DNA of 64,000 nt from Dehalococcoidia bacterium (GTDB taxonomy: Bacteria; Chloroflexota; Dehalococcoidia; SM23-28-2; RBG-16-64-32). Of this stretch, positions 28,045-42,951 are shown one piece after another. Under the pieces are notes generated by a model that was given only the letters and a program-made list of their open reading frames with translations, had not been told where the DNA came from and did no database searches. Positions within the stretch are counted from its first letter, which is position 1, and the number at the start of each line of letters is the position of its first letter. The stretch is from positions 26,266 to 90,265 of the forward strand of contig JAUSFE010000040.1 in assembly GCA_030649945.1 (NCBI GenBank), given 5' to 3'. The position numbers and the translations under genes are program-made.

Positions 28045-28767
28045 TCAAACCGGCCCCCAGAACTCCTCCAGGTACGCCGCCGATTCCGCCGGGAACTGCT
28101 CGGGCCACCAGTGGCTCCCCGGCAGCGTCACGAGGCGCGCCCCCGCCCGCTCCGCCATCCGCTTCGCGAACTCGATCTGCGTGTATGGGTCCTTTTCGCC
28201 CCATATCAGCAGCCCGGGCCGGGCGCTCATCCCCTCGACGTCCGCGTGCCACTCCTTCATGTACGTCACCGCCGACCGGTACAGCGGCAGGACGCTCGCC
28301 TTCATCCGGTCGTCTACCCTGGACGCCACCTGCCGGGCGGCTTCCTCCGGCACCCCTTCGGTGGTCAAAGCAGTAACCATCGCATCCAGAGTGAACCCCG
28401 CCATCACCTGCTCGCCCGTCCCCGGCGTCTGCCACATCTTCGCCAGCGGGTGCCAGTCGTACCCCTCGTCGATCGCCGCGCCCCCGATCGCCCACGTCCG
28501 CACAAGGTCCGGCCGCACCTGAACCAGCCGCGCCGTCAGCAGCGCCCCCCAGTCGTGGCCAACGATGTCCACCGGCGCCCCAACCTTCTCCACCTCGCCG
28601 ATCAGCCACTCCAGGTACTCCTCCTTCGTGCACCCGAACCCATCGGGCAGGTCCGTGCCAAACCCCGGCAGCGAAACCGCGCTGGTGTCCTTGCGGGAGA
28701 GGCGCCCTCGAACCCCATCCCAGAGATGATGCGTGTCAGGCACCCCGTGTACGAATATCGCCGGCAT
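28045..28767 (-). CDS. alpha/beta-hydrolase fold protein
   Basis: MPAIFVHGVPDTHHLW...VGHDWGALL (GHDWG nucleophile elbow). GGAAGG-rich SD upstream. Confidence 0.8.
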   Translation of the reverse strand: MPAIFVHGVPDTHHLWDGVRGRLSRKDTSAVSLPGFGTDLPDGFGCTKEEYLEWLIGEVEKVGAPVDIVGHDWGALLTARLVQVRPDLVRTWAIGGAAIDEGYDWHPLAKMWQTPGTGEQVMAGFTLDAMVTALTTEGVPEEAARQVASRVDDRMKASVLPLYRSAVTYMKEWHADVEGMSARPGLLIWGEKDPYTQIEFAKRMAERAGARLVTLPGSHWWPEQFPAESAAYLEEFWGPV

Positions 28768-28804
28768 GTTCCCTTCCTTCCTTATCCTTCCTTCTTCCCA
28801 CTTC

Positions 28805-29386
28805 TTATCGCGAGAACGTCCCCGTGATCTCGCCAGCCGCCAGCACATGCCCCTGCATCGCCGCCTCCACCTCGCCCCGCGAGGCGCCGGGCTCGAGGCC
28901 GAGCGCGGCGTGCAGCGCGTACACCGTCATGACATATGTGTGTGTCTGGCCCCCGGGAGGGCACGGCCCTGCGTAGCCGATCTCGCCCCTGCTGTTCGTC
29001 CCCTGCGCCGCGCCGTTCGGAAGGCGCCCGTCCTTCGACACCGATTCGAATCCAGTGTTGTTCGGCGGGATGTCGTACATCACCCAGTGCACGAACGGTT
29101 CGTCACCCGGAGCGTCCGGATCATCGAGGATGAGAGCGAACGACTCGGTGTTCCCCGGTTCGCCACTCCAGGATAGCGGGATCGGCGCCTCAGCGCCGTC
29201 GCAGCTGAACTTGACCGGGATCTGACCTCCCTCGGCGAAAGCCGGCGACACCACCGCCAGCACGTGGACCTGTGGAGACGGCGACGCCGTTCCGCTCGGC
29301 GGCCCGCCACGGGCGCCGTTATCACCGCCGCAGGCGGCCAGGAGCAGCACCGGCACCACCACGGCCCATGTCCACCTCACGATCAT
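28805..29386 (-). CDS. YbhB/YbcL-type phosphatidylethanolamine-binding protein (PEBP) lipoprotein
   Basis: Signal/lipobox VVVPVLLLAACGGD. PEBP motifs DPDAPGDEPFVHWVMYDI and GYAGPCPPGGQTHTYVMTVYAL. Confidence 0.75.
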   Translation of the reverse strand: MIVRWTWAVVVPVLLLAACGGDNGARGGPPSGTASPSPQVHVLAVVSPAFAEGGQIPVKFSCDGAEAPIPLSWSGEPGNTESFALILDDPDAPGDEPFVHWVMYDIPPNNTGFESVSKDGRLPNGAAQGTNSRGEIGYAGPCPPGGQTHTYVMTVYALHAALGLEPGASRGEVEAAMQGHVLAAGEITGTFSR

Positions 29387-29400
29387 GGCCCGCCCTCCCG

Positions 29401-30687
29401 TTACAGATACCTCTCCGCCATCTCCCCCGGCACCGCGTTCGCCCGCGCGATCTCGGCGAACATCGCCGCGCTCGGCTTCGGGATGCGGCGCAGCGTCCCC
29501 TCCTCGCGGGCGAACAGCCCGAACTTCTGGCGGAAGCCCTCCGCCCACTCAAAGTTGTCCTGGAACGTCCAGTGCAGATAGCTGCGCAGGTCCACTCCCT
29601 CGCGCAGGGCCCGGTGCGCCTGCGCCAGGTGGCGCACGACGTACCGGCGGCGCTGCTCGTCGTCGTCCGTGCCGATGCCGTTCTCTGTTATGTAAACCGG
29701 CACCCCGTACCCGGCCGCCCTCTTCAGGCACTGATAAAATCCGTCCGGATACACCTCCCAGCCCATCGTGCTCGTCTCCGCGTCCGCCGGCGGCGGAACC
29801 TGCTCGATCATGGCCGGCGGCGGCCCCGCCTTCACCACCGCGCGGGAGTAGTAGTTCACTCCCACGAAGTCCCACGCGCCCTTGAGCCCCTCCACCGGTT
29901 CGCCATCCCCCGCCGGCGGGCCGATGACGCCGTCCCGCAGCCCGTCCAGCCAGTACGCGTTCAGGTACTGGTCCATGAGCTGCGCCGCCTGCCGGTCCTC
30001 CTCCGTGTCGCCGCCGGGCATCACGTATGTCATGTTGATCACCGGGCCGATCTGTGGGCTGTGCGGCGCCGACTCCCGGATCGCCTGGTGCATGCGTCCC
30101 AGGGCGATGAGCACATGGCGTGTCGCGGTCAGGAACTCGCGCGGATCGCGATGGCAGGGCGGGAACTCGCCCATCAGATAGGCGGCCGCCGGCGTCACCG
30201 AGGGCTCGTTCACCGTCAGCCAGAACGGCACAGCGTCGCCCAGCTGCTTCGCCATGTAGGCGGCGTAGCGCCCCAGCAGCGCCGGCGCCTGCGGGTTCAA
30301 CCAGCCGCCCTGTTCCTCGAACCAGACGGGGTTGCAGAAGTGGTGCAGGGTGGCGAACGGCGTCAGGTTGTGCCGGCGCAGGCAGTCCACAACGCGCCGG
30401 TAGTGCTCCACTTCCTTCTCGTCCCAGCGCCCCTCCTGCGGCTCGATGCGGCTCCACTCGATGGAGAAGCGGTAGGCGTTGTGGCCAAACTCCTCCATCA
30501 GCCGGCAGTCCTCCTCGAACCGGTTGTAGTGGTCGCACGCCGGCCCGGAGGTCGTCCCGTCCTTGACGTGCCCGCCCTCCTGCTCCCACCGCCACCAGTG
30601 GTTGTTGCGGTTGTTCCCCTCCACCTGGTGCGAGGATGTCGCCGTCCCCCAGTGGAAGCCGTCTGGAAACCTGAGCTCCTGCCCCAT
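29401..30687 (-). CDS. GH1 beta-glucosidase
   Basis: FPDGFHWGTATSSHQVEG N-terminus. LTVNEP acid/base and YITENG nucleophile motifs. Confidence 0.92.
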   Translation of the reverse strand: MGQELRFPDGFHWGTATSSHQVEGNNRNNHWWRWEQEGGHVKDGTTSGPACDHYNRFEEDCRLMEEFGHNAYRFSIEWSRIEPQEGRWDEKEVEHYRRVVDCLRRHNLTPFATLHHFCNPVWFEEQGGWLNPQAPALLGRYAAYMAKQLGDAVPFWLTVNEPSVTPAAAYLMGEFPPCHRDPREFLTATRHVLIALGRMHQAIRESAPHSPQIGPVINMTYVMPGGDTEEDRQAAQLMDQYLNAYWLDGLRDGVIGPPAGDGEPVEGLKGAWDFVGVNYYSRAVVKAGPPPAMIEQVPPPADAETSTMGWEVYPDGFYQCLKRAAGYGVPVYITENGIGTDDDEQRRRYVVRHLAQAHRALREGVDLRSYLHWTFQDNFEWAEGFRQKFGLFAREEGTLRRIPKPSAAMFAEIARANAVPGEMAERYL

Positions 30688-30820: not shown

Positions 30821-31153
30821 CTATCCTTTATCTCCCGGTGGCCGATATGTGATCGACGAGGACTTCTGCAGGGCTGCGAGCGTCTCCTCAACCGTCAGCA
30901 AGACAGTCGTCTGGAGGGAGCTCAGTGCTCCGCCGGCGCTGATTGCGATCGCCGTGGCTGCCATCGAGACGTTATCCGGGGCCTCCCACAAGGTGTATGC
31001 GTCGTGATCGCCGAAGGCATACCAGAAACCATGCAACTTTCCGCCGACCGCCTCGATGTACTGCTTGGCTGCCGCTCGGCGGTCCTCGGGGTTCTTGATG
31101 AGCTTCGCCCACGTTGCCGGTGTGTAGCTGAACCGGGTCAGGTAGAACGGCAT
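30821..31153 (-). CDS. GYD-domain protein
   Basis: 110 aa with YTLWEAPD...AISAGG core typical of the GYD family. Confidence 0.65.
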   Translation of the reverse strand: MPFYLTRFSYTPATWAKLIKNPEDRRAAAKQYIEAVGGKLHGFWYAFGDHDAYTLWEAPDNVSMAATAIAISAGGALSSLQTTVLLTVEETLAALQKSSSITYRPPGDKG

Positions 31154-31249
31154 CGGTCTTCCTCCTTCGCTTTCATCCCGCCGGCGGCAAAGTGTGTCGG
31201 ATCAGATATCCCTAGCGTGCGCTTCGCGCGTCTGCACCGCAAGACCCAC

Positions 31250-31340
31250 TGGTTATTGCGACAGTTGCCCTCCACCTGGTGCGACGAGGTGGCCCGTCCC
31301 CCAGAGGAAGCCTTCCGGAAACGCCAGTGGATTAGTCATC
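31250..31340 (+). pseudogene. duplicated 5' fragment of the GH1 gene (about 85% identical to 30600-30690)
   Basis: ccactggtt.ttgcg...ccctccacctggtgcga..gt..ccgtcccccag.ggaagcc......aaac matches the region encoding HWWRWEQEGGHVKDG of the GH1 gene. No intact reading frame. Confidence 0.5.
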
Positions 31341-31364
31341 AGCCGTCCATTTTTCTTGCGTCAG

Positions 31365-32336
31365 TCAAAGCCGTATCTCCTTCTCCAGCCAGTCGATCTT
31401 CTCGTTCTTTCGCCTCCAGAAGACGTCTTCCCAGATGTAGTGGACCGCGAGCATCGAGTACCTGCCGTACCGGCTCGTGATATCGTCCCTGATCAGGTCT
31501 GCCGGCACCAGCGGCCTCTTGTAGAAGAGGCGGGAGTAGATCTTCTGTTGCCAGGGGGCGATATGGTCGAACGTGTCGTACTGATGGCAAGCTTCAAACA
31601 ACAGAATGCGCGCACTTTCGGGACCAACTCCGTACAGCATCATCAGTTCCCGTTTGGCGTCGTCCTTATCCAGGCCTCGAATCCGGTCTTCATCCACCTT
31701 TCCTTCGGCGAAATCCTGCGACAAGCGCTTCACGAACTTTGCTCTGTACCCGATTTTCAAGTCTCGCAAGTCCTGTTCCGAAACGTTCGCGAGGTCTTCC
31801 GGCAGCCAGACTGCAAACATATTCCTGCCGTCAAACTCGAGTCTCGTGCCGTAGTTCTCGAGGAGTGCGCTCATCATCTGCACGGTCCTCCTCACAGTCG
31901 CATTCTGAAGGACCACGGCGACAATCAAGAGGTCATACAAGCCATGGGCTGTCGAATTCCGCATCCCCAACCACCTCTTGAAGACCGGGAAGAAGCACTT
32001 GTCGGCCTTCGCCAGTTTGTTGAACTCGCTCAGGTCGGCGTCCAGGTCGAAGCGCCAGACAATCTCGCGCTTGACGGTCTCTATCTCGCTGTCAAAAATC
32101 GCGCCGTCGTGGAAGACTGAGACCCCTAGACTGGGCTTTCCGGCTTCCGTCCTGTCCTCGACCTTCAATCCAAAGAGCTTCTTGCCCGCGCGGATCGCCT
32201 GCCAGTACTTGCCGGGCTCCCAGGCGCTCAACCCATCGGGGAAGTGAGACGGCTTGTGAAAAGTCCCGTCGAAATGGAACGGGGCCGAGGGCGCGACGAG
32301 GAACTCTGTGTTGTCCGGAAGTACCAGCGACTTCAC
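31365..32336 (-). CDS. HhH-GPD superfamily DNA glycosylase (AlkA/Ogg-like)
   Basis: LMMLYGVGPESARILLFEA helix-hairpin-helix plus downstream conserved Asp. The region has visibly lower GC than its surroundings. Confidence 0.7.
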   Translation of the reverse strand: MKSLVLPDNTEFLVAPSAPFHFDGTFHKPSHFPDGLSAWEPGKYWQAIRAGKKLFGLKVEDRTEAGKPSLGVSVFHDGAIFDSEIETVKREIVWRFDLDADLSEFNKLAKADKCFFPVFKRWLGMRNSTAHGLYDLLIVAVVLQNATVRRTVQMMSALLENYGTRLEFDGRNMFAVWLPEDLANVSEQDLRDLKIGYRAKFVKRLSQDFAEGKVDEDRIRGLDKDDAKRELMMLYGVGPESARILLFEACHQYDTFDHIAPWQQKIYSRLFYKRPLVPADLIRDDITSRYGRYSMLAVHYIWEDVFWRRKNEKIDWLEKEIRL

Positions 32337-32407: not shown

Positions 32408-33292
32408 CTACTCCCCCTCCTGCCGCTCCTGCACCGCCTGCGCCCGCCGCTGGTCGATCAGCATCTTCACGATGGGCGATGGCTCCAGCGGCTGCCAGTC
32501 CCGCTTTGCCTCGTCGAATGGCTGCGGCCACTCGATCTCCAGCTCCCGCACCTCGCCTCCGCCTGAGCCGGACGCCTCGTCCAGCAGGCGTAGCGCCTCG
32601 CGGATGATCCGCAGCTGCGTCTCACGGTCCCCCGGCATCCCCAGCGGGTGGCCGAACGGGAACTCGACGCCGATCGTCCTGGGCGCACCCATCTTCTCCG
32701 ACCAGTACGGCATGTTCGTCACGATCACGGTGCTCAGCCCCAGGCTCTCCAGTCCGCGTGCCAGCACGGGCACGTTGCGGGCGCAGTCCGGTCAGGCGGG
32801 TGTCAGCAGGGCCACGTCCACCGCCTCGTCCTTCATCAGCCCGGCCACTTCCGGGATGTACTTCTCCCGCCACTCGGCAGTGTTGTTCTGGTAGCCCATG
32901 AAGGAGTAACTGGTGGGCGCCAGCGAGCCAACGTCGCCTGCCGTCTCCAGCTCGCGGAACCGCTCCACCGGCAGCACGATGTTCACGTCCATCAGCAGGT
33001 CGCGATTGTTGATGTGCAGGTGGCTGGCGCCTATCTGATCCTGGCGGACGTCGCTGGGGATGCGGCGGTACGTCGGGTCGCCCCACATCGGCTCGCGCCG
33101 CTCGCGCTCGGCGTCAAAGGGCGGCTCCACCCCCTTCACGTAGATGCCGGCGGTGGTCACCAGGGCGAACCGGGCCTCGCGCACAGGCTTGCGCAGGGGC
33201 GTCCAGGGGATGGGCTCCTGCCGCTGGACCGCGAGGTTGCGGTAGTACGCGGCGATGGATCCCGGCAGGTATTTGAAGCTGTCCACGGGCAT
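32408..33292 (-). CDS. PrdB/GrdB-family (glycine/proline reductase B-type) selenoprotein candidate; in-frame TGA at 32792-32794 read as Sec
   Basis: The track ORFs 32792-33292 and 32408-32773 are in the same frame, separated only by TGA plus 6 codons. Joined, they read ...EAVDVALLTPA-U-PDCARNVPVLARG..., paralleling the PrdB ...GVDAVILTAG-U-GTCHRSAVII... block. N-terminal blocks also match (ALVTTAGIYVKG; SYSFMGYQ). Confidence 0.65.
32754..32780 (-). promoter_or_regulatory. SECIS-like stem-loop 11 nt downstream of the in-frame UGA
   Basis: mRNA: UGA-CCGGACUGCGC-CCGC(AAC)GUGCC-CGUGCU-GGCAC-GCGG. A 9-bp bulged stem with a 6-nt G/U-containing loop, at the spacing typical of bacterial SECIS elements. 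Confidence 0.45.
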
Positions 33293-33468
33293 GGCGGCAC
33301 CTCCAGTGCTCCGCCCATTCTAGCAGCCGGCCGGCCGGGTTGCGCACGGTCTGCGGCTGATTACCGAACGTTCACCCCGCGTCAACCGGCGGCCGGTAAC
33401 GATGCCGGCGCCCGCCGCCTCATACCTAACGGGAGAGCCAGACAGCAGTCAGGAGAAAGGACACGCAG

Positions 33469-34065
33469 TTGCTCCGTCAGTTCGACGATCTCTACATCCC
33501 GCAGGACGAACGCACGCTGCAGCGCATCCAGCGCCGGGCCGACGAGATCGATCGCCGCGTGCGCAACTGGGCCCAGTCCGTGGTGAACGTCTTGCCCCGG
33601 GGCCTCTCGCTGCACGAGGACGAGGTCTACATCCTGAGCCTGTTCCTGGCCCAGCAGAGGCGTCTGAACCTGGAGATGGACTCCCTCAACCCGCCGGTGA
33701 CCCTGCGCACCCGCCTGGGCCGCGTGCTGCCGCTGGTGGGCGAGGCCGAAGAGGACCCGGAGCTGCTGCGCGCCTTCCATCGCATAGTCTCCACGCGGCT
33801 GGAATCCGACATCGACCGCGCCTGCGGCTTCTTCTGCCGCGACCAGAACGTGCCCCCTATCTCCGACCCCGCTATCGATTGGCGCGTGGCCATCCGCTTC
33901 ATGGCCCAGAGCCTGCACAGCCTGGCCAACCAGATCGACATGCGGCAGTACGGCAGCTCCCCGCGACGCTTCGAGCTGGCAGTGCTGGCGCGCGACCTGG
34001 CGCCCGCCGTCGTCGATAAGCGTCGCGCGCTTCTCGCCGCCTTCAGCACAGACCCCGTGCTGTAG
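33469..34065 (+). CDS. hypothetical protein
   Basis: 198-aa ORF. TTG start with AGGAGAAAGGA SD. No recognisable domain. Confidence 0.45.
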   Translation: MLRQFDDLYIPQDERTLQRIQRRADEIDRRVRNWAQSVVNVLPRGLSLHEDEVYILSLFLAQQRRLNLEMDSLNPPVTLRTRLGRVLPLVGEAEEDPELLRAFHRIVSTRLESDIDRACGFFCRDQNVPPISDPAIDWRVAIRFMAQSLHSLANQIDMRQYGSSPRRFELAVLARDLAPAVVDKRRALLAAFSTDPVL

Positions 34066-34258: not shown

Positions 34259-34963
34259 GTGCGCCCCCTGGTCATCTCCCACGCCGCCTGCGCCGGCCAC
34301 GCGCCGGAGAACACCCTGGCCGGCATCCGCCGCGCGCTGGAGCTGGGCGCCGACGGCATCGAGATCGACGTGCAGACGACGGCCGACGGCGTGCCCGTCC
34401 TCATGCACGACCTGACGGTGGACCGCACGACCAACGGCCACGGCGAGCTGGCGAAGATGAGCCTGGCGCAGCTGCGAGGGCTGGACGCCGGCGGCGAACC
34501 GCCACCCACGCTCGCCGATGTCCTCCAGCTCACGAAGGGCCGCGCGCTCCTCGTCGCGGAGATCAAGCAGCCGGGCATCGAGGAGCATCTCGCGGGGGCG
34601 GTACGCGAGGCGGAAGCCGTGGACGACGTGATGGTCTGGTCGTTCTTCCCGCAGGCGCTGGCGGCGATGCGCGCAGCCGAGCCAAGCCTGCCGGGCGGCC
34701 TGCTCCTGGGGCCACAGACCCTGCCGCAGTGGCCGGAGATGCGCAGGCTGGCGTTGAGTCTGGGCCTGCAGGCGGTGAGCGTCTTCTGCTATGGCATCAC
34801 GGAGGAGATACGCCGGGACACGCAGCGCAGCGGCCTGGCGCTGTACGCCTGGACGGCGGACCCGGTGGAGGAGATCGCGCGGCTGATCGCCCTTGGCGTA
34901 GACGGCGTCTGCACCAACTACCCGGACCGCGCCCTGGCGCTACTCAGCCCACAGGCGTCCTGA
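34259..34963 (+). CDS. glycerophosphodiester phosphodiesterase (GDPD family)
   Basis: ISHAACAGHAPENTLAGIRRALELGADGIEIDVQTTADGVPVLMHD canonical GDPD N-terminus (catalytic His/Glu/Asp). GTG start. Confidence 0.85.
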   Translation: MRPLVISHAACAGHAPENTLAGIRRALELGADGIEIDVQTTADGVPVLMHDLTVDRTTNGHGELAKMSLAQLRGLDAGGEPPPTLADVLQLTKGRALLVAEIKQPGIEEHLAGAVREAEAVDDVMVWSFFPQALAAMRAAEPSLPGGLLLGPQTLPQWPEMRRLALSLGLQAVSVFCYGITEEIRRDTQRSGLALYAWTADPVEEIARLIALGVDGVCTNYPDRALALLSPQAS

Positions 34964-34999: not shown

Positions 35000-35075
35000 A
35001 GGGGCGTAGCTCAGTTGGAAGAGCGGCGGTCTCCAAAACCGCAGGTCGGGGGTTCGAGACCCTCCGCCCCTGCCA
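35000..35075 (+). tRNA. tRNA-Trp (anticodon CCA), CCA encoded; integration target
   Basis: Acceptor AGGGGCG/CGCCCCT, anticodon loop CTCCAAA, T-loop GGTTCGAGACC. The 3' 45 nt are duplicated at 42907-42951. Confidence 0.92.
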
Positions 35076-35130
35076 CTAATTCGTATCTGAAATCGGCCTC
35101 AGAGCGCCGTCCAGTCCGCGAGCCGTGGGC

Positions 35131-35154
35131 GTTTGACAGCAGATTTGACAGCAA
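35131..35154 (+). repeat. putative integrase arm-type site (TTTGACAGCA x2), left end of element
   Basis: Identical 24-mer recurs at 42789-42812 near the other end, in the same orientation. Confidence 0.4.
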
Positions 35155-35271
35155 CCAGCGACGCAACGGGGTGCTAAACGCTCTCGGCCACGGCCACGAT
35201 CACCGCAGGGCAAGCCGCGCGAAGGCTTCAGTAGGTGATATCATCCTGACTTAAAGCAAGGAGATGCATCG

Positions 35272-35517
35272 ATGACACGGCTCTACTGGAAAGCCAAAGA
35301 CGCAATCGAATTCGCGCGGCGCTTCGAGGCGCTCTGCGATGCCACAAAGGGCACCCCTAATGCCCCGCTTGTGGACCGGCTCGGCGAGGTGCTGACCCTG
35401 GAAGGCACGGACACGACAGCGATCTTTCACACCCTCGCGAAGGGTGCCAGCGCGTCCCAACTCCAGGTCCTGCAGGACATCTACGAAGCCGAAGGGTTCC
35501 AGGCTGACGGCTACTGA
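35272..35517 (+). CDS. hypothetical small protein (element cargo)
   Basis: 81-aa ORF, start preceded by AGGAGATG. No recognisable domain. Confidence 0.35.
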   Translation: MTRLYWKAKDAIEFARRFEALCDATKGTPNAPLVDRLGEVLTLEGTDTTAIFHTLAKGASASQLQVLQDIYEAEGFQADGY

Positions 35518-35801
35518 GCGGGACGCGCTCTTACCCGCCGAAACATAGGTTTCAGTCCCCGGCACCGTCCCAAATGTAGGCCGCAAGGGGTGGTTAGCCG
35601 GGCTCGCAACTACCACGGCCCGCTACCACGCCCCGCACGGGGCGCAGCCGCGCCAGGCGCACGGCAGGCCACTACCCCCCCCTTCATTTTCCCCGGAGTT
35701 GTTGTCGGCAGACTTCATTGCAGCCTGCAAGGAAGTGGTTTCGCCGTCACGCTTGCCCTGCTCGCGTTCCAGTTCTGCTAATAGCGCCCCGCCAAGACTA
35801 G

Positions 35802-36404
35802 TTAGCGCTGCAACACGCTGAGCGGCGGGTCCGCTACCTGTAGGCGCGCCGCTGCCATGATCCGCGCGCCGTGATGGGCCACGAAGGCGCTTGCGTAGTC
35901 GCTGGCCGCCGCCTCTTGCTGCTCGTAAGTCGCGCCGGGATGTAGTGGGGTGTAGTGCAGATGATGGACTTCATGGGCCACGGTGCGAACGGAGGATTCA
36001 GCGTCCTGTTCGGCGCTAACCCAGAACTGCCCGCGCTCCCATAGGGCGACGCCGGTCAACTCAACGTCGGAGGTAATGAGGACTCGCCCGCTGCCGCCAA
36101 ACGCCTCGAAGTAACCCATATCGCCCGCCACGTTAAGCTCGTCACCGGCCAAAAAGTGCGCGTATTCCGTGGCGGCCTTTAAGAGCGCCGGCGGCGAGTG
36201 ACAGCGCCCATACTTGAAGGTAGCGGCCTGACTGGCGGCGACGGCGAGTACGGAGATGACAGGTCTTAGCGGCACTTCCACGCGATACGGCTTCGATTGC
36301 TCCTTGACGATTGCCCGCGCTCTTTCGAGAATGTCGCCCGAGATCAGCCCCGGCGGAAGAGCCGGGCGGAAGAGCGACGGCGGGTCCGCGTATCGCAGTG
36401 TCAT
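35802..36404 (-). CDS. putative zinc metallopeptidase (HExxH; ImmA/IrrE-like?)
   Basis: VAHEVHHLHY contains HEVHH. About 200 aa. Its location in a mobile element fits an anti-repressor-type peptidase. The family assignment is an inference. Confidence 0.4.
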   Translation of the reverse strand: MTLRYADPPSLFRPALPPGLISGDILERARAIVKEQSKPYRVEVPLRPVISVLAVAASQAATFKYGRCHSPPALLKAATEYAHFLAGDELNVAGDMGYFEAFGGSGRVLITSDVELTGVALWERGQFWVSAEQDAESSVRTVAHEVHHLHYTPLHPGATYEQQEAAASDYASAFVAHHGARIMAAARLQVADPPLSVLQR

Positions 36405-37072
36405 TTCGCCTCTCCCGCCTGGGCAATCATCGCCCTCAACGCGGCGAGCCTTCCGGCGACTTCGCCAGCACTGAGCGCTTCCAACTTCAGCGCTTCCGCC
36501 TGCAACCGGGCCTCGTTGATCGCTGCCAACTGGGCTTGCACGGCTTCCCCGTTGCCAGTAAGCGGCGAGCGCTGTTCCGTCACCAGGTTCAGCGTCCCGC
36601 CTGAGACATTGATTGGAGTCCGGCGGACTTGCTCGAAGAGGACGCTCAGCTCGCCCAGGAACGCGGCGATCTCGGGGTCCGCCGTCGCCTCAAGCTCCGC
36701 ACTCAGCGCGTCACGCTCGCGGGCGAAGCGGGCGCGAAGGTTGCTCTCCACAATGGCGGCCTCCCGGAGCGCGGCCGTCGCCGTCTCCACCGCCGTCTGT
36801 GCAGCTCCCACGCGGGCCTGGGCTTTGGCGCGGGCGTCAACGAGTGCAGGTAACGCCGCCTCAAAGTCCGCCGTCAGCGCTGCTATCTGCACCGCCTTTG
36901 CCTTGCGGAGTGCGAGCTGCTCTCGGGCGTCTTCCTCGATGATTCTTTGCCCAATCGGCCCGGAAGTCAGCCTGTCCAAAACCCTTTGCGTGAGCGTTGG
37001 GTTTGTCATGTTGTTGCCCCTTTCCTGGCTAGTCGTTTGGTTCGTACTCCGGTCATGTACCTCGTGCGACAC
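36401..37072 (-). CDS. hypothetical coiled-coil protein
   Basis: Ala/Glu/Leu/Arg-rich heptad-like sequence. Start may be the internal MTNPT (37009). Confidence 0.4.
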   Translation of the reverse strand: MSHEVHDRSTNQTTSQERGNNMTNPTLTQRVLDRLTSGPIGQRIIEEDAREQLALRKAKAVQIAALTADFEAALPALVDARAKAQARVGAAQTAVETATAALREAAIVESNLRARFARERDALSAELEATADPEIAAFLGELSVLFEQVRRTPINVSGGTLNLVTEQRSPLTGNGEAVQAQLAAINEARLQAEALKLEALSAGEVAGRLAALRAMIAQAGEAK

Positions 37073-37379
37073 CGAGGGGGGTGCCTCTCGTCTTCCCCAA
37101 CAGCAGGCGAAGGCGGGCCTCGGCGGCAGCGATGCGCGAATTAGTCGCCTTCAGCCGGTCCTTCCAGCGCGTGCCGTACACGTACCGCGTGTATTCGTCG
37201 TCTGGCAGGGTGCGGTAGTGGCTGGCGTCTGCCTCCAGGGAGCTGAGAAGGCGTTGGACGCGCCGGACCTCGTAAGCCGCGGCCTGCCTGCATATCTCGC
37301 CGCAGAACAGTCGCGGGCGTCCCGTCTTTGGTTGCTGAAGAGCCGTTCCGCACTTGGCGCAACCTAGTTTCTCAGACAT
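37053..37379 (-). CDS. hypothetical zinc-ribbon protein
   Basis: MSEKLGCAKCGTALQQPKTGRPRLFCGEICRQ has a CxxC...CxxxC arrangement. Start at the internal Met of the track ORF. Confidence 0.4.
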   Translation of the reverse strand: MSEKLGCAKCGTALQQPKTGRPRLFCGEICRQAAAYEVRRVQRLLSSLEADASHYRTLPDDEYTRYVYGTRWKDRLKATNSRIAAAEARLRLLLGKTRGTPLGVARGT

Positions 37380-37473
37380 GACCCCCCCTGCCGAATACGC
37401 GGGCAAAAACGCGGCGCTGCACACCGTATTAGAAGCGATGGCAGGCCCAGCGATTTGGCCCGGATATTGGGGG

Positions 37474-37815
37474 TTAGGACCATCGCCCACCGTCCCTCAG
37501 GCGCTCCGTCGCACTCTTCCGGGAATGACAGGAGTGGCAAAGGCTTTCCAGCCCCGCCGGGTCGAGGCGCGCGCCCCCCTGGCTCACGGGACGTACATGA
37601 TCCACCTGCTCGGCCGGCTTGCCGCATCGGACGCAGGTCGGGTTAGCCGCGATGTACGCGTCCCTGACCTTCCGCCAGTCCGGGCCATAGACACCGCGCC
37701 GCAGTGGGTTGCGGCCGCGTTCATAACTGGCCAGGTGCTCGGCGCATAACCCGCCCCGCTTGGCCGGGTGCGAACAGGCGGAGAGCCGACACGGGGTGTT
37801 CACGCGGCTCGGCAC
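37474..37815 (-). CDS. HNH endonuclease
   Basis: CVRCGKPAEQVDHVRPVSQGG...LESLCHSCHSRK: HNH motif with a zinc-binding Cys quartet. Confidence 0.8.
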   Translation of the reverse strand: MPSRVNTPCRLSACSHPAKRGGLCAEHLASYERGRNPLRRGVYGPDWRKVRDAYIAANPTCVRCGKPAEQVDHVRPVSQGGARLDPAGLESLCHSCHSRKSATERLRDGGRWS

Positions 37816-38021
37816 TTCAACCCCCCAACCCGTACACAGAGAAATCTGCGATCACGGCGTATTAGAAGCATGGCAGCCACAGCAATTGCAGGCCACCTAT
37901 GGGGGTTGACCACGCACCTCAGCCGGCGGGGCCGCCGCCGCCCAGACAGCGAACCCCGCCGACTGCGGAGGAGGGAGATGAACCGTAGTTGTCTTTTGGT
38001 ATCGCCTGCGGGCCGTCGTCA

Positions 38022-38318
38022 TCAGAACGCCTCCGGTCCGGCACAGCGGTCACAATGAACCAGGACAAGCACATCGACGGGTAGGTGCGCCGCGCCGAAG
38101 TAGACATCTTGAGCCCGGCGGCGAGCGTCAGCGGGTTGCAGACTGACTCCGCAGCTATCACACGAGAGCGGCCCCGGCAGTGGACGCCGGAAGGCGCTTG
38201 CCGCGAGCGCGAGGTATTCCCGGTCCCGCCGCTCAAGCTCACGATCTCTATCGGAAGGCGGGCGGTCTTCGTATCCCTCGAATGGGGCGGCCAGCAGGGT
38301 CACGCCCGCAACTCCCAA
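38022..38318 (-). CDS. hypothetical protein
   Basis: 98-aa ORF overlapping the primase gene end by 19 nt. Weak. Confidence 0.25.
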   Translation of the reverse strand: MGVAGVTLLAAPFEGYEDRPPSDRDRELERRDREYLALAASAFRRPLPGPLSCDSCGVSLQPADARRRAQDVYFGAAHLPVDVLVLVHCDRCAGPEAF

Positions 38319-40468
38319 CTCGCGGCGTAGCCCGGCGCCTCGGGGTCCGCGTCGTCACAACAGGGCGCCCACTCCTGGGCAGGCGGCCGCCGGGCGATGA
38401 TGGGCAGGCCGGACCCTTCGACTCCGGCCCGGACCAGCGGCCCGTCCGTCTCCTGCAGGTAGTGCGCGAAGCATCGGGGCGTGCCATCGGGGGCGTAGCC
38501 TTCGATTTCGGGCGAGCCGCAGATGCAGACGGAGGACAGGGGGGGCTGTTGGGCCTTGTCGCCCATCCCTGAAAGAACAGCAACCCCGGTAACAAGAGCA
38601 ACTTCGTTCGTATCTATGGTTGCTCTTTCTTCCTTAGTTGCTCTTGTTTCAAGGTAGCGAGAGAACGCATCCTCGAACTGTTGCGCCTGATACCCCTTCG
38701 GTTTCTTTCCGTCGTAGTCAATCGTCTTGGCTTTGATACCGAACTGCCGCAGACGCCAGCCCAGCCGGCGAGTGTCTAGCGGCTTGCTGTTCAAGTCTCC
38801 CCAGGGCGCATCCTCTATGACAACCAGCTCCGCCACCAGGTTGGCGATGGTGATCTTGTCCCTGCCCGTGATGATGGTCTGTATGTCGCTCAGGAGCCGC
38901 ACACCCAAACTATTGTCCTCGCGGCCATCCCCAACGCTGAGCGCCAGCGCCGCCGCCCTCGCACGTTGCGGCCAGTCCCCGCCTGCCAAGTCCGCGATGG
39001 CGAGTAGTGGTTCCCATCCGTCAGCAGCACGATCGTCTAACTCTAGTAGGTCGGGCTGAGCATCCGTCAGCGCAGGCAGAGCGGATAACGCCCATGCTTG
39101 CAAGAGCTGGCGCAACGGCTCCGCTTCGGTCTGAGCGTGACGCCAACGGAACCGAGCCACGGTTTCCCCAGGAGCGCGACGCTTTAGGATGATGGTGATT
39201 GAGCGGTCGCTGATCGTATCCGGCAGTCGCCCGATGCCAGCAATCGCCTTCGCTCCAAAGACTGGAAAGTCCTTAACCTCCATTGAGGCACCTTGACCAA
39301 CGCAGAGTGTGGCGCAACCGCCTCTGCGATGCCCGTTATTGAGGATGCCCCGGAGCGCTTCGCTGAACTCCGCCGGACCTTTGAACGCCGCGTCTGACTC
39401 GTCTATCAACGCTGTCACTCCGTCGCCCATCTTGCGAACCAGCGCCGCCGCCGTGGTCCTGCCGGTCAACCACGGGTGGGCTACTACGTGAACCAGGGTT
39501 TCTAGCAACCGCGTCTTGCCTGATCTCTTCTCCGCCGACGTTACTTCGAGGTAAGGCGTACTCTCCGCCGCGTCCAGCGCCCACGTATGAGCCGTCCAGA
39601 GTGCGAGCGCGTCCGCCTGAGCGTCCGCCAGGGCCACGTATCGGCGGATGATAACGCGCACGTCGTCCAGCAGCGCGGCCAGGTCCGCTTCCCCCGGCGC
39701 CCAGGGCACCGCCGCATCTAGGAGCTGGCGAAGAGCGTCATCATTCCCCAGGTAGTCGGCAGCATCGCCCTTATCGGGAGCGTCCGGCCAGTCCACGGTC
39801 CGCACGTCCGCGCACCCCAGCCGGGCCAGCGCGTCGGCGATACGCTGCATGTGTAACCGGCCAGGTTCGTCGTTGTCAGGCCACAGGGCGACGGAGAGCC
39901 GCACAAGTGGCCCCAGAGCATTGTGCCCCGGCGTCCCCGCCGCGCCCGTCACCGAACCCACGGCGGGGATACCGCGAGCCGTGAGAGCTTCCGCCGCTTT
40001 CTCGCCTTCCGTCAGGACTACGCGGGCGCCGTCAGGGAGATCGGCCAGCCGCACCGTGAAGTACAGCGGCAGCGCCGATACTGGCAGCCCGCCCAGGCCC
40101 ATTGAGCCGCCGGGCCGCTCCCAGCCGAACTTCTTATCGCCGTGGGGAAGATCACGCCGGATATGGACGGCCACCAGCTCGCCGCCAGTGTCCCGAATCT
40201 CGTAGCGTGTCTCGCGCGGCTTCGGCTTGCGCCCGTTCCTTGACGGCGGCGACGGCCACAAGCCGCGTTCCGTCAAGGCGGCGATCACGGCGTCCTGCGA
40301 GCATCCCGCGAAGTCCTTGACTAGCACCTTGCCGTCCTTGCCGGTGCCCACGGCCAGACTGGGCGTCTCATCGGCGTGGGAAGGGCAGTGAACCTTGCCC
40401 TTCGCCCGCTGGCACTCGCAGCCTGAGCGGCCACAGGCAAGGGCCTGGGCGATCTCGGAGGCAGTCAC
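38300..40468 (-). CDS. DNA primase/replication protein (N-terminal zinc-binding, TOPRIM, C-terminal DUF3631-like domain)
   Basis: CECQRAKGKVHCPSH zinc motif. TOPRIM VVLTEGEKAAEAL...LWPDNDEPG. C-terminal segment LEVTSAEKRSGKTRLLE...IDESD resembles the DUF3631 found on actinobacterial integrative elements. Confidence 0.75.
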   Translation of the reverse strand: MTASEIAQALACGRSGCECQRAKGKVHCPSHADETPSLAVGTGKDGKVLVKDFAGCSQDAVIAALTERGLWPSPPSRNGRKPKPRETRYEIRDTGGELVAVHIRRDLPHGDKKFGWERPGGSMGLGGLPVSALPLYFTVRLADLPDGARVVLTEGEKAAEALTARGIPAVGSVTGAAGTPGHNALGPLVRLSVALWPDNDEPGRLHMQRIADALARLGCADVRTVDWPDAPDKGDAADYLGNDDALRQLLDAAVPWAPGEADLAALLDDVRVIIRRYVALADAQADALALWTAHTWALDAAESTPYLEVTSAEKRSGKTRLLETLVHVVAHPWLTGRTTAAALVRKMGDGVTALIDESDAAFKGPAEFSEALRGILNNGHRRGGCATLCVGQGASMEVKDFPVFGAKAIAGIGRLPDTISDRSITIILKRRAPGETVARFRWRHAQTEAEPLRQLLQAWALSALPALTDAQPDLLELDDRAADGWEPLLAIADLAGGDWPQRARAAALALSVGDGREDNSLGVRLLSDIQTIITGRDKITIANLVAELVVIEDAPWGDLNSKPLDTRRLGWRLRQFGIKAKTIDYDGKKPKGYQAQQFEDAFSRYLETRATKEERATIDTNEVALVTGVAVLSGMGDKAQQPPLSSVCICGSPEIEGYAPDGTPRCFAHYLQETDGPLVRAGVEGSGLPIIARRPPAQEWAPCCDDADPEAPGYAASWELRA

Positions 40469-40659
40469 CGGACGGCGTCCGCCGTAGCTTCGGCCAGGAG
40501 CCGCGCCGCGTAGGCGTCAACCTCAGCCGTACTCACCCGGACCGCGCGGCCGATCCGGACCGCGTGCAACTCGTTCGCCGTGAGAAGCTCGTACAGCTTC
40601 GAGCGCCCCAGCGACAGCCTGGAAGCCGCAGCCGGGATTGTCAGCAAGATTTGTTCCAT
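40465..40659 (-). CDS. excisionase/DNA-binding HTH protein (Xis-like)
   Basis: 64 aa. AASRLSLGRSKLYELLTANELHAVRIGRAVRV is a helix-turn-helix typical of MerR-like excisionases. Overlaps the primase start. Confidence 0.6.
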   Translation of the reverse strand: MEQILLTIPAAASRLSLGRSKLYELLTANELHAVRIGRAVRVSTAEVDAYAARLLAEATADAVR

Positions 40660-40746
40660 ATCGTCGCCTCCCTGGGGGTAGTGTTTTTACTCGTTCGCCA
40701 TACTCACGTTGACACAGGGCAAGCGCCGTGGCAATATACAGAGGAT

Positions 40747-41676
40747 ATGCAACCGTCCGAAGAGACGTCCGACTTTCTGGAGATGGACAGCCCGCTCGCG
40801 GGCTACTGGTTCAAGCCGGACGCCGGGTTCGAGTGGGCCAGGCCGGGCGTGCCGGTATACGACGAACGCGGCCAGCCTGTGCCTGACAAGGGGCCGTGGT
40901 TGGTGCCAAGAGGGGATACCGGGACTCGCTATGCCGTGCTGCGCCGGAGCCGTCTCCTGCCCGCGTTCGCCGATCTGGGCCGCAACGCCTCGCCCGAGCG
41001 CGTCCTTACGTTCGCGAACGAATGGGGGCCGCTCGGCCAGGGCGAATGCAATGTTGGGAAGCGGTCAGGCGCGTCGCTCAATACGTGGGGCGCTCACGCC
41101 CGCAAGGTTGCGACCCTCTGTCACCTATGGGAATGGGTCCGGCTGGGAGATACCGAGCGCCTGGAGCCGTACATCCGCTGGCAGTCGCGCCCGGCGATGG
41201 TGAGCATAGCGTTAGTGTCCGTGAACGGTTTGCCCGACGCCGGGCGTTCAGCCCGGATGACTGGTGTCGGGGCGCTTCCGCCCAACTCTTGGGGGCCGGT
41301 CTACACTCTCGCGAGCGCATCCCATGACCCGAACGGCTTTCTGCGCCAGTGGGAGCATGGCGACCCTGTGGAGCCGATGCGCTACTATGTCTGCCAGTCC
41401 GTGAATCAGGCGTTGGAAGGGCACATTAACCGGGCCGTCCTGCCGTACTACGGCTACGCCGTCCGCTACTTCCCGGACTCCCTGCTGAGCGCCGTATACC
41501 TACGCCTCCAGGACCGGATAGCGGGCGCTGTCCGCCAGGAGCGCCAATGCACGGCTCCGGGGTGCCCGCAAGGGCGATTCATACCGGGGCGCAGCGATCA
41601 ACAGTATTGCAGCAACCTCTGCAGGAAGCGGGCGCACTATCACGCCCAGAAGGAAGGTAAGAGTGATGGCAGGTAA
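40747..41676 (+). CDS. hypothetical protein with C-terminal Cys-rich (zinc-finger-like) tail
   Basis: Start at MQPSEETS. C-terminal CTAPGCPQGRF...YCSNLCRKRAHYH. Overlaps the integrase start (operon). Confidence 0.45.
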   Translation: MQPSEETSDFLEMDSPLAGYWFKPDAGFEWARPGVPVYDERGQPVPDKGPWLVPRGDTGTRYAVLRRSRLLPAFADLGRNASPERVLTFANEWGPLGQGECNVGKRSGASLNTWGAHARKVATLCHLWEWVRLGDTERLEPYIRWQSRPAMVSIALVSVNGLPDAGRSARMTGVGALPPNSWGPVYTLASASHDPNGFLRQWEHGDPVEPMRYYVCQSVNQALEGHINRAVLPYYGYAVRYFPDSLLSAVYLRLQDRIAGAVRQERQCTAPGCPQGRFIPGRSDQQYCSNLCRKRAHYHAQKEGKSDGR

Positions 41677-42793
41677 GCGCGGGAACGCCGAAGGCACGAT
41701 CTACAAGCGCACAGATGGGCGATGGTGCGCCGCCGTGACGCTGGACGGGGGTAAGCGCCGGGCCTTCTACGGGGCCACCCGTGGGGCCGTCCAGGACAAG
41801 CTCAGGGCCGCGAAGCGGGCGATAGACGACGGCCTGCCCGTTAGCTCCGACCGCCAGAAGGTCGGCCATTTCCTTACCCGATGGCTGGCCGAAGTCGCGC
41901 AGCCGACAGTCCGCCCGAGCACATACACCCGCTATCGCGAGCTGCTCACCGGCCACGTGGTCCCCGCGCTCGGCCATCTGCCGCTCGCGAAGCTCGGCCC
42001 CCAGGACTTGAACGCCCTTTACGGGAAGCTCGCGCAGCGCCTCGCGCCCCGCACAGTCGGCCACGTCCACCGCGTCTTGCACCGGGCTCTCCGCGATGCC
42101 CTCCATTGGGGGCTTGTCGCCCGCAACGTCTGCGACGCCGTGAGTCCGCCGAAGGTCGCACGTGCGGAGATGCAGGTTCTCGGCCCTGAACAGGCCCGCG
42201 CCCTGATCGCCGCCGCTGCTGGCGACCCTCTGGAAGCGGTCTACACGCTGGCGATCTTAACCGGACTCAGGCAAGGCGAATTGCTGGCGCTGAAATGGCG
42301 CGACTTCGACGCTGGCGCTGAACGTCTTACCGTCTGCCGCAGTGTGCGATGGGTGACTGGCCTGGGGTCAGTTGAGGGTGAGCCTAAGACGCGGAGCGGG
42401 CGCCGCAGTGTACTACTCGCGCCCCTAGTCGTCGCCGCTCTCAGACGGCACAGGACGCAGCAAACCGAGCAGCGATTACGGGCCATCGCGTGGGAGGACA
42501 ACGATCTGATTTTCACTAACGAGATAGGCCGCCACATCGAAGCAAGCAACCTGCTCCGCCGGTCATTCCGGCCCCTGCTCGAACGGGCCGATCTGCCGCG
42601 AATCCGGTTCCACGATCTCCGCCATACCGCCGCGACACTCCTACTCGGCCAGGGAGTGCACGCCAAGATCGTCAGCGAGATGCTGGGGCATTCCAACATC
42701 GCCATCACGATGGACCTCTACAGCCACGTCACGCCGACGATGCAGGCCGACGCCGCCGCGAAGATGGAGGCGCTATTCACCGTCGCAGTTTGA
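41663..42793 (+). CDS. int: tyrosine-type site-specific integrase
   Basis: N-terminal SAM-like/arm-binding domain. Catalytic R...HDLRHTAATLLL...LGHSNIAITMDLYSHV (R-H-R-Y box). Confidence 0.92.
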   Translation: MMAGKRGNAEGTIYKRTDGRWCAAVTLDGGKRRAFYGATRGAVQDKLRAAKRAIDDGLPVSSDRQKVGHFLTRWLAEVAQPTVRPSTYTRYRELLTGHVVPALGHLPLAKLGPQDLNALYGKLAQRLAPRTVGHVHRVLHRALRDALHWGLVARNVCDAVSPPKVARAEMQVLGPEQARALIAAAAGDPLEAVYTLAILTGLRQGELLALKWRDFDAGAERLTVCRSVRWVTGLGSVEGEPKTRSGRRSVLLAPLVVAALRRHRTQQTEQRLRAIAWEDNDLIFTNEIGRHIEASNLLRRSFRPLLERADLPRIRFHDLRHTAATLLLGQGVHAKIVSEMLGHSNIAITMDLYSHVTPTMQADAAAKMEALFTVAV

Positions 42794-42812
42794 CAGCAGA
42801 TTTGACAGCAAC
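42789..42812 (+). repeat. putative integrase arm-type site, right end of element
   Basis: TTTGACAGCAGATTTGACAGCAAC, identical to 35131-35154. Confidence 0.4.
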
Positions 42813-42906
42813 GCGGGTGAACAACGACGGACGCGGGCGGACAAACGCCCGCGTTTTCGTATCTAAAACGGTTGTCTGTGAACGTCCCCGGACGCTATGG
42901 CGAGGA

Positions 42907-42951
42907 CTCCAAAACCGCAGGTCGGGGGTTCGAGACCCTCCGCCCCTGCCA
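42907..42951 (+). repeat. attR: 45-bp duplicate of the tRNA-Trp 3' end
   Basis: ctccaaaaccgcaggtcgggggttcgagaccctccgcccctgcca is identical to 35031-35075. Confidence 0.85.

Follow-up and report, generated by a model that had tools for sequence, protein, structure and literature searches.

A PrdB-like selenoprotein gene of Chloroflexota with an in-frame UGA codon and a conserved downstream hairpin

The closest described relatives of the protein reported here are the selenoproteins PrdB and GrdB, for both of which the published motif is UxxC (PMC13188914, PMC1088965). In Clostridioides difficile PrdB the selenocysteine (Sec) is residue 151, and in the PrdB reaction the Sec attacks the substrate carbon, after which the enzyme is re-reduced (PMC11229817). 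Proteins of this kind are also found in environmental selenoproteomes: "Proline reductase PrdB", with a UxxC motif, ranked third in abundance among the selenoprotein families of the Sargasso Sea data, with 42 Sec forms versus a single Cys form (PMC1088965, Zhang, Fomenko & Gladyshev 2005), and in the GOS data PrdB was represented by 235 Sec and 110 Cys forms (PMC2398784, Zhang & Gladyshev 2008). Selenoproteins of Chloroflexi were already present in a 2006 survey (PMC1794560), and BSepDB includes Dehalococcoidia MAGs with 46 and 49 selenoproteins (PMC13326102).

The window analyzed here, a stretch of 64 kb from a Dehalococcoidia bacterium, carries on its minus strand two called ORFs in the same frame, 33292..32792 (166 aa, ending in TGA) and 32773..32408 (121 aa, with a GTG start), which are separated only by the TGA and the six codons P-D-C-A-R-N. 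A first-pass annotation, which gave no strand, had described this arrangement and proposed a joined product of about 294 aa; both its coordinates and its description are correct, since a single frame runs from the ATG at 33292..33290 to the TAG at 32410..32408 and is broken only by the TGA at 32794..32792. The joined protein is 294 aa long, which corresponds to ~32 kDa, contains the motif A-U-P-D-C and reads ...VDVALLTPA-U-PDC-ARNVPVLARGLE... around the Sec residue. The features of the gene are as follows.

33300..33304, minus strand: Shine-Dalgarno sequence GGAGG, 7 nt 5' of the ATG, as read from the sequence
32408..33292, minus strand: coding sequence of the PrdB/GrdB-family selenoprotein, 294 codons, with U at codon 167 and one internal TGA
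32792..32794, minus strand: Sec codon UGA (codon 167), followed by C (UGA-C context), present as TGA in 81 of 81 distinct orthologues
32783..32794, minus strand: redox motif U167-P168-D169-C170 (UxxC), which is U-P-[D/E]-C in all orthologues

No other in-frame TGA junction in the window has coding-like GC3 on both sides, and the scan detected no further selenoprotein gene in the 64 kb. Applied to 1.16 Mb of related DNA, the same filter returned 14 same-frame junctions, all of them ordinary gene junctions, and the bare adjacency of two ORFs is therefore neither statistically remarkable nor decisive. At the level of sequence comparison, it is the comparative evidence, and not the adjacency, that makes the case for recoding real.

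To assign the protein to a family, the joined sequence was scored with Cys substituted for U. It passes the Pfam model GRDB (PF07355) over residues 16-164, with 34.7 bits against a gathering threshold of 22, so that a match to this family, for which the first-pass annotation had advised searching, does exist. The highest score among the curated models was obtained with the NCBIfam equivalog PrdB (TIGR04483; 154.1 bits, E 3.9e-45), which is nevertheless below the cut-off of 300, as is the score of 38.7 bits with the subfamily model TIGR01918 (glycine/betaine/sarcosine/D-proline reductase family selenoprotein B; cut-off 65.45), while the GrdF, GrdH and GrdB models gave 35-49 bits, far below their cut-offs of 600-800. 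On the basis of these scores and cut-offs the protein is a PrdB-like member of the GrdB superfamily and not a PrdB equivalog. The alignment to TIGR04483 extends over residues 29-243 (model positions 19-224 of 238) and therefore crosses the TGA, bearing out the proposed parallel between the joined protein and PrdB. A profile built from 12 full-length homologues, run against 1.84 billion proteins, retrieved 3,054 cluster representatives, of which 1,128 had E <=1e-10. One of the 3,054 is P0272 (241 aa), a bona fide PrdB, which reaches 453 bits with the PrdB equivalog model; the window protein is 30% identical to it. A joint alignment places U167 opposite Cys151 of P0272, the first residue of its C151-G-T-C154 motif, this being the position of Sec151 in C. 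difficile; the TGA sits, as had been predicted, where PrdB has its Sec.

Given this resemblance, the gene could encode a canonical D-proline reductase PrdB whose prdA and other prd partners are elsewhere in the genome, as would be in line with PrdB being the best-scoring curated model, with the identical Sec position and UxxC motif, and with the JGI label "D-proline reductase (dithiol) PrdB" carried by many members. We consider this improbable, because the score is about half of the equivalog cut-off, the identity to a bona fide PrdB is low, and the family has an insertion of its own (ERERREPxWGDP) together with a C-terminal extension of ~45 aa. The genomic neighborhood also argues against it. 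Clostridia keep prdA and prdB in one cluster (PMC11229817), and membership in PrdB would entail a prd cluster with the pyruvoyl proprotein PrdA at the locus. Clustering of the ORFs within 7 kb found no PrdA-like gene in any of 82 loci, nor is there one near the gene in the window, as the first-pass annotation had stated. Likewise, grdA, grdC, grdD and grdE were absent from the vicinity, and no neighbor is universal, none being common to more than 21 of the 82 loci. The genes around the selenoprotein gene in the window are listed below.

28045-28848: alpha/beta hydrolase
29401-30687: GH1 glycosidase
30821-31153: GYD protein
31365-32336: HhH-GPD glycosylase-like protein
33469-34065, plus strand, divergent to the selenoprotein gene: 198-aa protein with no Pfam family
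34259-34963: GDPD phosphodiesterase

The commonest neighbors are clade-specific, namely the GDPD phosphodiesterase (21 of 82 loci), the 198-aa protein (16) and the GH1 glycosidase (10). The 198-aa protein is kept next to the selenoprotein gene in 16 loci of Dehalococcoidia type and could be a clade-specific functional partner or regulator. The HhH-GPD and GYD genes (30821-32336), located between the selenoprotein gene and the GH1 gene, are missing from the syntenic locus L002 and have a lower GC content (0.617), which suggests a local insertion. A tRNA-Trp(cca) gene is found ~1.6-1.9 kb upstream of the orthologue in L002, L005, L006, L008, L009 and L011-L019, as it is in the window, and the synteny between this tRNA and the selenoprotein gene is conserved in many Dehalococcoidia loci. 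In the window the tRNA (35000-35075) harbors an integrated mobile element of ~7.9 kb (35028-42951), the 3' 48 nt of the tRNA being repeated at 42904-42951 with 47 of 48 positions identical; the genes of the element have lower GC3 and include those for a DUF3631 protein (38300-40468, minus strand) and a tyrosine integrase (41663-42793, plus strand).

Selenoproteome surveys look for a conserved in-frame UGA with conserved coding on both sides, for Cys homologues at the Sec column and for a SECIS stem-loop shortly downstream with G/U in its apical loop, and each of these three was found for this gene. Scanning one genome per GTDB species yielded 80 loci with 81 distinct orthologous genes, which are 51-74% identical. 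Nearly all of the loci are from Chloroflexota (Dehalococcoidia, Anaerolineae, Ardenticatenales), besides one labeled Binatia and one labeled Myxococcales, and tblastn matches in the 80 genomes cover residues 1 to ~290 without a break. The complete chromosomes OY969814.1, OY970386.1 and CP070708.1 are among those with an orthologue. The Sec column is TGA in every one of the 81 genes, never TAA or TAG, followed by P-[D/E]-C, and the two bases right after the UGA are invariably CC. The first-pass annotation had set recoding against a genuine stop shared by the orthologues and asked whether they carry Cys or TGA at this column: the answer is TGA throughout, with Cys in rare full-length homologues, and the frame beyond the TGA stays open for 111-150 further codons in every orthologue. 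Orthologues differ pairwise by 0.30/0.27/0.56 at codon positions 1/2/3 upstream of the TGA and by 0.33/0.25/0.54 downstream of it, and amino-acid identity is 58% on both sides. TGA also serves as the final stop in ~30 of 83 orthologues and in 24 of the 57 genes of the window, and hence UGA is recoded locally and not reassigned genome-wide.

The RNA downstream of the UGA provided a second line of comparative evidence. A consensus structure was derived with RNAalifold from 78 distinct sequences, with columns numbered from the U of UGA, and its core maps to the window as follows.

32774..32769, minus strand: 5' stem arm CGUGCC (columns 21-26), starting 17 nt after the UGA
32768..32763, minus strand: loop CGUGYU, which is CGUGCU in the window (columns 27-32)
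32762..32757, minus strand: 3' stem arm GGCACG (columns 33-38)

Pair 23:36 is U-A in 45 sequences, U-G in 19 and C-G in 14 and is broken in none of the 78, and pair 21:38 is C-G in 68, U-A in 7, U-G in 2 and broken in one. Several times, a substitution that alters the amino acid on one arm (V to A, or R to Q/H) is accompanied by a synonymous one opposite. The covariation score exceeds those of all 500 shuffles and of every slid control. In the loop, G28 and G30 are invariant and U29 is at least 97% conserved. Moreover, the six codons from +18 are frozen at their synonymous sites: N173 is AAC in 60 of 66 sequences, V174 is GTG in 65 of 66, P175 is CCC in 78 of 78, V176 is GTG in 79 of 79, L177 is only YTG and A178 only GCR, against a codon entropy of ~1.3-1.9 bits at four-fold degenerate codons elsewhere in the gene. 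As judged from this comparison among orthologues, the frozen synonymous sites and the compensatory changes show that the hairpin is under selection. Bacterial SECIS elements are stem-loops that follow the UGA at a distance of some tens of nucleotides and have G/U in the apical loop, and a stem beginning 17 nt after the UGA with an invariant G-U-G loop fits this general description. No SECIS family of Rfam was detected, whether gathering thresholds were applied or 32650-32900 was scanned permissively.

The bulged hairpin originally described for this locus is longer and begins 11 nt after the UGA.

32780..32754, minus strand: extended hairpin CCGC / AAC bulge / GUGCC / loop CGUGCU / GGCAC / GCGG

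It does fold in the window sequence, with a folding z of -1.0 and 33 of 200 shuffles folding equally well or better in this 66% GC sequence, but its lower stem (32780..32777 with 32757..32754) was rejected as a conserved feature, being paired in 33% of cells and specific to the window; the conserved core is the part that starts at 17 nt. Folding-energy z-scores of the hairpin range from +1.3 to -1.0, not significant in GC-rich sequence, and because folding energy is unremarkable at this GC content, covariation and synonymous-site conservation were used as the evidence for a SECIS element.

At the Sec column itself, full-length homologues show what replaces U. Ten of them have C-P-D-C, and C170 is invariant. 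Two others, P0003 and P0013, have D-A-N-C; Asp at the Sec/Cys position, with the second Cys retained, points to a variant that acts differently or has no redox role. Truncation at 166 aa affects even the proteins nearest to the Cys form P0002 (76-83% identical). The predominant state is Sec. Of the 150 best superfamily representatives, 49 have CxxC, 32 end right before the column and 8 begin just after it. The same set (P0220-P0369) also includes proteins in which xxC is preceded at the Sec column by W (3) or G (8). These may not be real Trp or Gly but TGA codons that metagenome gene callers translated with genetic codes 4 or 25.

The apparatus for Sec decoding, whose presence in the same genome such surveys look for as well, was sought at the locus and its orthologues. 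No tRNA-Sec was found in the 64-kb window or in 60 orthologous loci, and tblastn with E. coli SelA, SelB and SelD gave no match in the window or in 84 loci, the orthologous loci covered in this search totaling 1.16 Mb. These negative results would be expected if the UGA were read through without Sec, with near-cognate decoding supplying, for instance, Trp or Cys, in a lineage whose Sec system is lacking or has been lost. The UGA-C context, at which termination is leaky, also speaks for such readthrough. However, leakiness requires no conserved hairpin with a G-U loop and compensatory changes at SECIS distance, and known Sec/Cys pairs show the very alternation with Cys that is seen at this column. 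In addition, the class is known to be rich in selenoproteins (PMC13326102), and we regard readthrough without Sec as very unlikely.

Still a little less probable is that the TGA is a true stop between two small genes, of 166 aa and of 121 aa (from GTG 32773), whose polypeptides may associate. Every gene caller annotates the locus in this way, there is a GTG six codons past the TGA, and the lack of Sec machinery in the window would pose no difficulty. In contrast, the six supposedly intergenic codons are among the most conserved of the gene (68% pairwise amino-acid identity, above the gene average, with P and C each in 81 of 81), the GTG at 32773 is codon V174, inside the conserved stem, the Cys homologues are single fused proteins, and a true stop should not have been kept as TGA, to the exclusion of TAA and TAG, in all orthologues. 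A pseudogene, or a sequencing or assembly error at the TGA, for which the stop codon speaks and nothing beyond it, is already refuted by an identical 3.1-kb contig from an independent run and by the TGA at the same column of 81 independent genomes with purifying selection downstream, and its probability is negligible.

The observation of one gene with UGA-encoded Sec, guided by a conserved hairpin, is thus confirmed, and it is highly probable that the gene encodes a Sec-containing protein of the GrdB/PrdB superfamily and that its UGA is recoded via a SECIS element. According to this model, UGA codon 167 would not be read as a stop, and the hairpin 17 nt downstream would act as the SECIS element, recruiting SelB with its Sec-tRNA(Sec), the decoding machinery being assumed; Sec would be inserted and translation would run for 127 more codons to the TAG. 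Sequence searches of the PDB returned no structure of PrdB or GrdB. The Cys homologue P0002, which is 52% identical and has the same numbering up to residue 167, was modeled with AlphaFold2 at a pLDDT of 94 and a pTM of 0.93; in this model the motif lies between strand 160-164 and helix 168-183. The product would accordingly adopt a Rossmann-like alpha/beta fold, with Sec167 and Cys170 between a beta-strand and the N-terminus of a helix, and the UxxC would occupy the position of the catalytic Sec151 in D-proline reductase PrdB. By analogy with PrdB, Sec167 would be the nucleophile that attacks the bound substrate and Cys170 the resolving thiol that converts the adduct to a selenenyl-sulfide, and an external thiol reductase would regenerate the enzyme.

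Because there is no PrdA or prd operon and the score is below that of the PrdB equivalog, the protein is most likely a stand-alone PrdB-like reductase and not a subunit of D-proline reductase. More tentatively, and with slightly more doubt than confidence, we suggest that the Chloroflexota clade represents a self-sufficient, PrdA-independent selenoenzyme, in which U167 and C170 of the PrdB scaffold, together with the insertion ERERREPxWGDP and the C-terminal extension, would serve both to bind and to reductively cleave a substrate that is not D-proline. If true, this would be a new enzymatic activity for possibly one of the commonest environmental selenoprotein groups.

The gene is misread well beyond this genome. 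Of 5.8 billion proteins searched, over 100 were orthologues of exactly 166 aa with 71-97% identity, and a few were full-length homologues of ~50% identity. More than 200 database clusters (P0001-P0219) hold the 166-aa N-terminal fragment, the C-terminal 118-121 aa being called as an ORF of their own, and NCBI and JGI already name members "D-proline reductase PrdB" or similar, yet truncate them. Mis-annotation at the Sec codon is systematic across public protein databases, and therefore a whole Chloroflexota selenoprotein clade is invisible to routine annotation. Correct gene models would improve selenoproteome counts for Chloroflexota of soil, sediment and wastewater, and the very uniform SECIS element (CGUGCC-CGUGYU-GGCACG) would be a handle for Sec genes in this phylum. 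Our current understanding of Sec decoding is not changed by this result. The first-pass annotation had called standalone PrdB-like selenoproteins a poorly characterized group, but the group is already catalogued in selenoproteome surveys. Biochemically, PrdB-like proteins without PrdA are a "known unknown", reported as abundant in the environment since 2005, for which no assigned substrate was found.

Compared with PrdB of Clostridium sticklandii and C. difficile (TIGR04483), the window protein is collinear over the model positions aligned above and shares the homologous Sec column (U167 versus U151) in a UxxC motif, Sec encoded by UGA with a downstream hairpin, and the motifs GD-x-[ST]-[YF]-R-x-I, D-x-N-x-x-[LF]-P, FMG and PR. 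It differs from PrdB in that its gene has no prdA, prdC or prdH neighbors, in an N-terminal VDSFKYLP segment besides the insertion and the C-terminal extension, in the residues inside the motif, which are P-[D/E] in this family whereas they are G-T in PrdB, and in its occurrence in Chloroflexota, whereas PrdB belongs to amino-acid-fermenting Clostridia. With GrdB, GrdF and GrdH (PF07355, TIGR01917/01918) the homology is to the C-terminal half of GrdB (positions ~200-410 of 431), which bears the UxxC Sec site, while the N-terminal ~200 residues of GrdB are absent. Selenoproteins with UxxC in a Trx fold (Trx-like, Prx-like and DsbA-like) are similar in that their motif follows a beta-strand and sits at a helix N-terminus, and in interchanging Sec and Cys. 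The "PrdB" proteins of the Sargasso Sea and GOS surveys, which are alike by description only, are related to pfam07355, have UxxC with far more Sec than Cys forms, and are abundant in non-clostridial environmental bacteria, whereas the members found here are mostly from MAGs of soil, sediment or wastewater Chloroflexota. Likened through these survey descriptions, the window gene is most simply a further member of the catalogued environmental PrdB group, and since UxxC selenoproteins named PrdB have been listed in environmental selenoproteomes since 2005, it adds to a known kind of selenoprotein.
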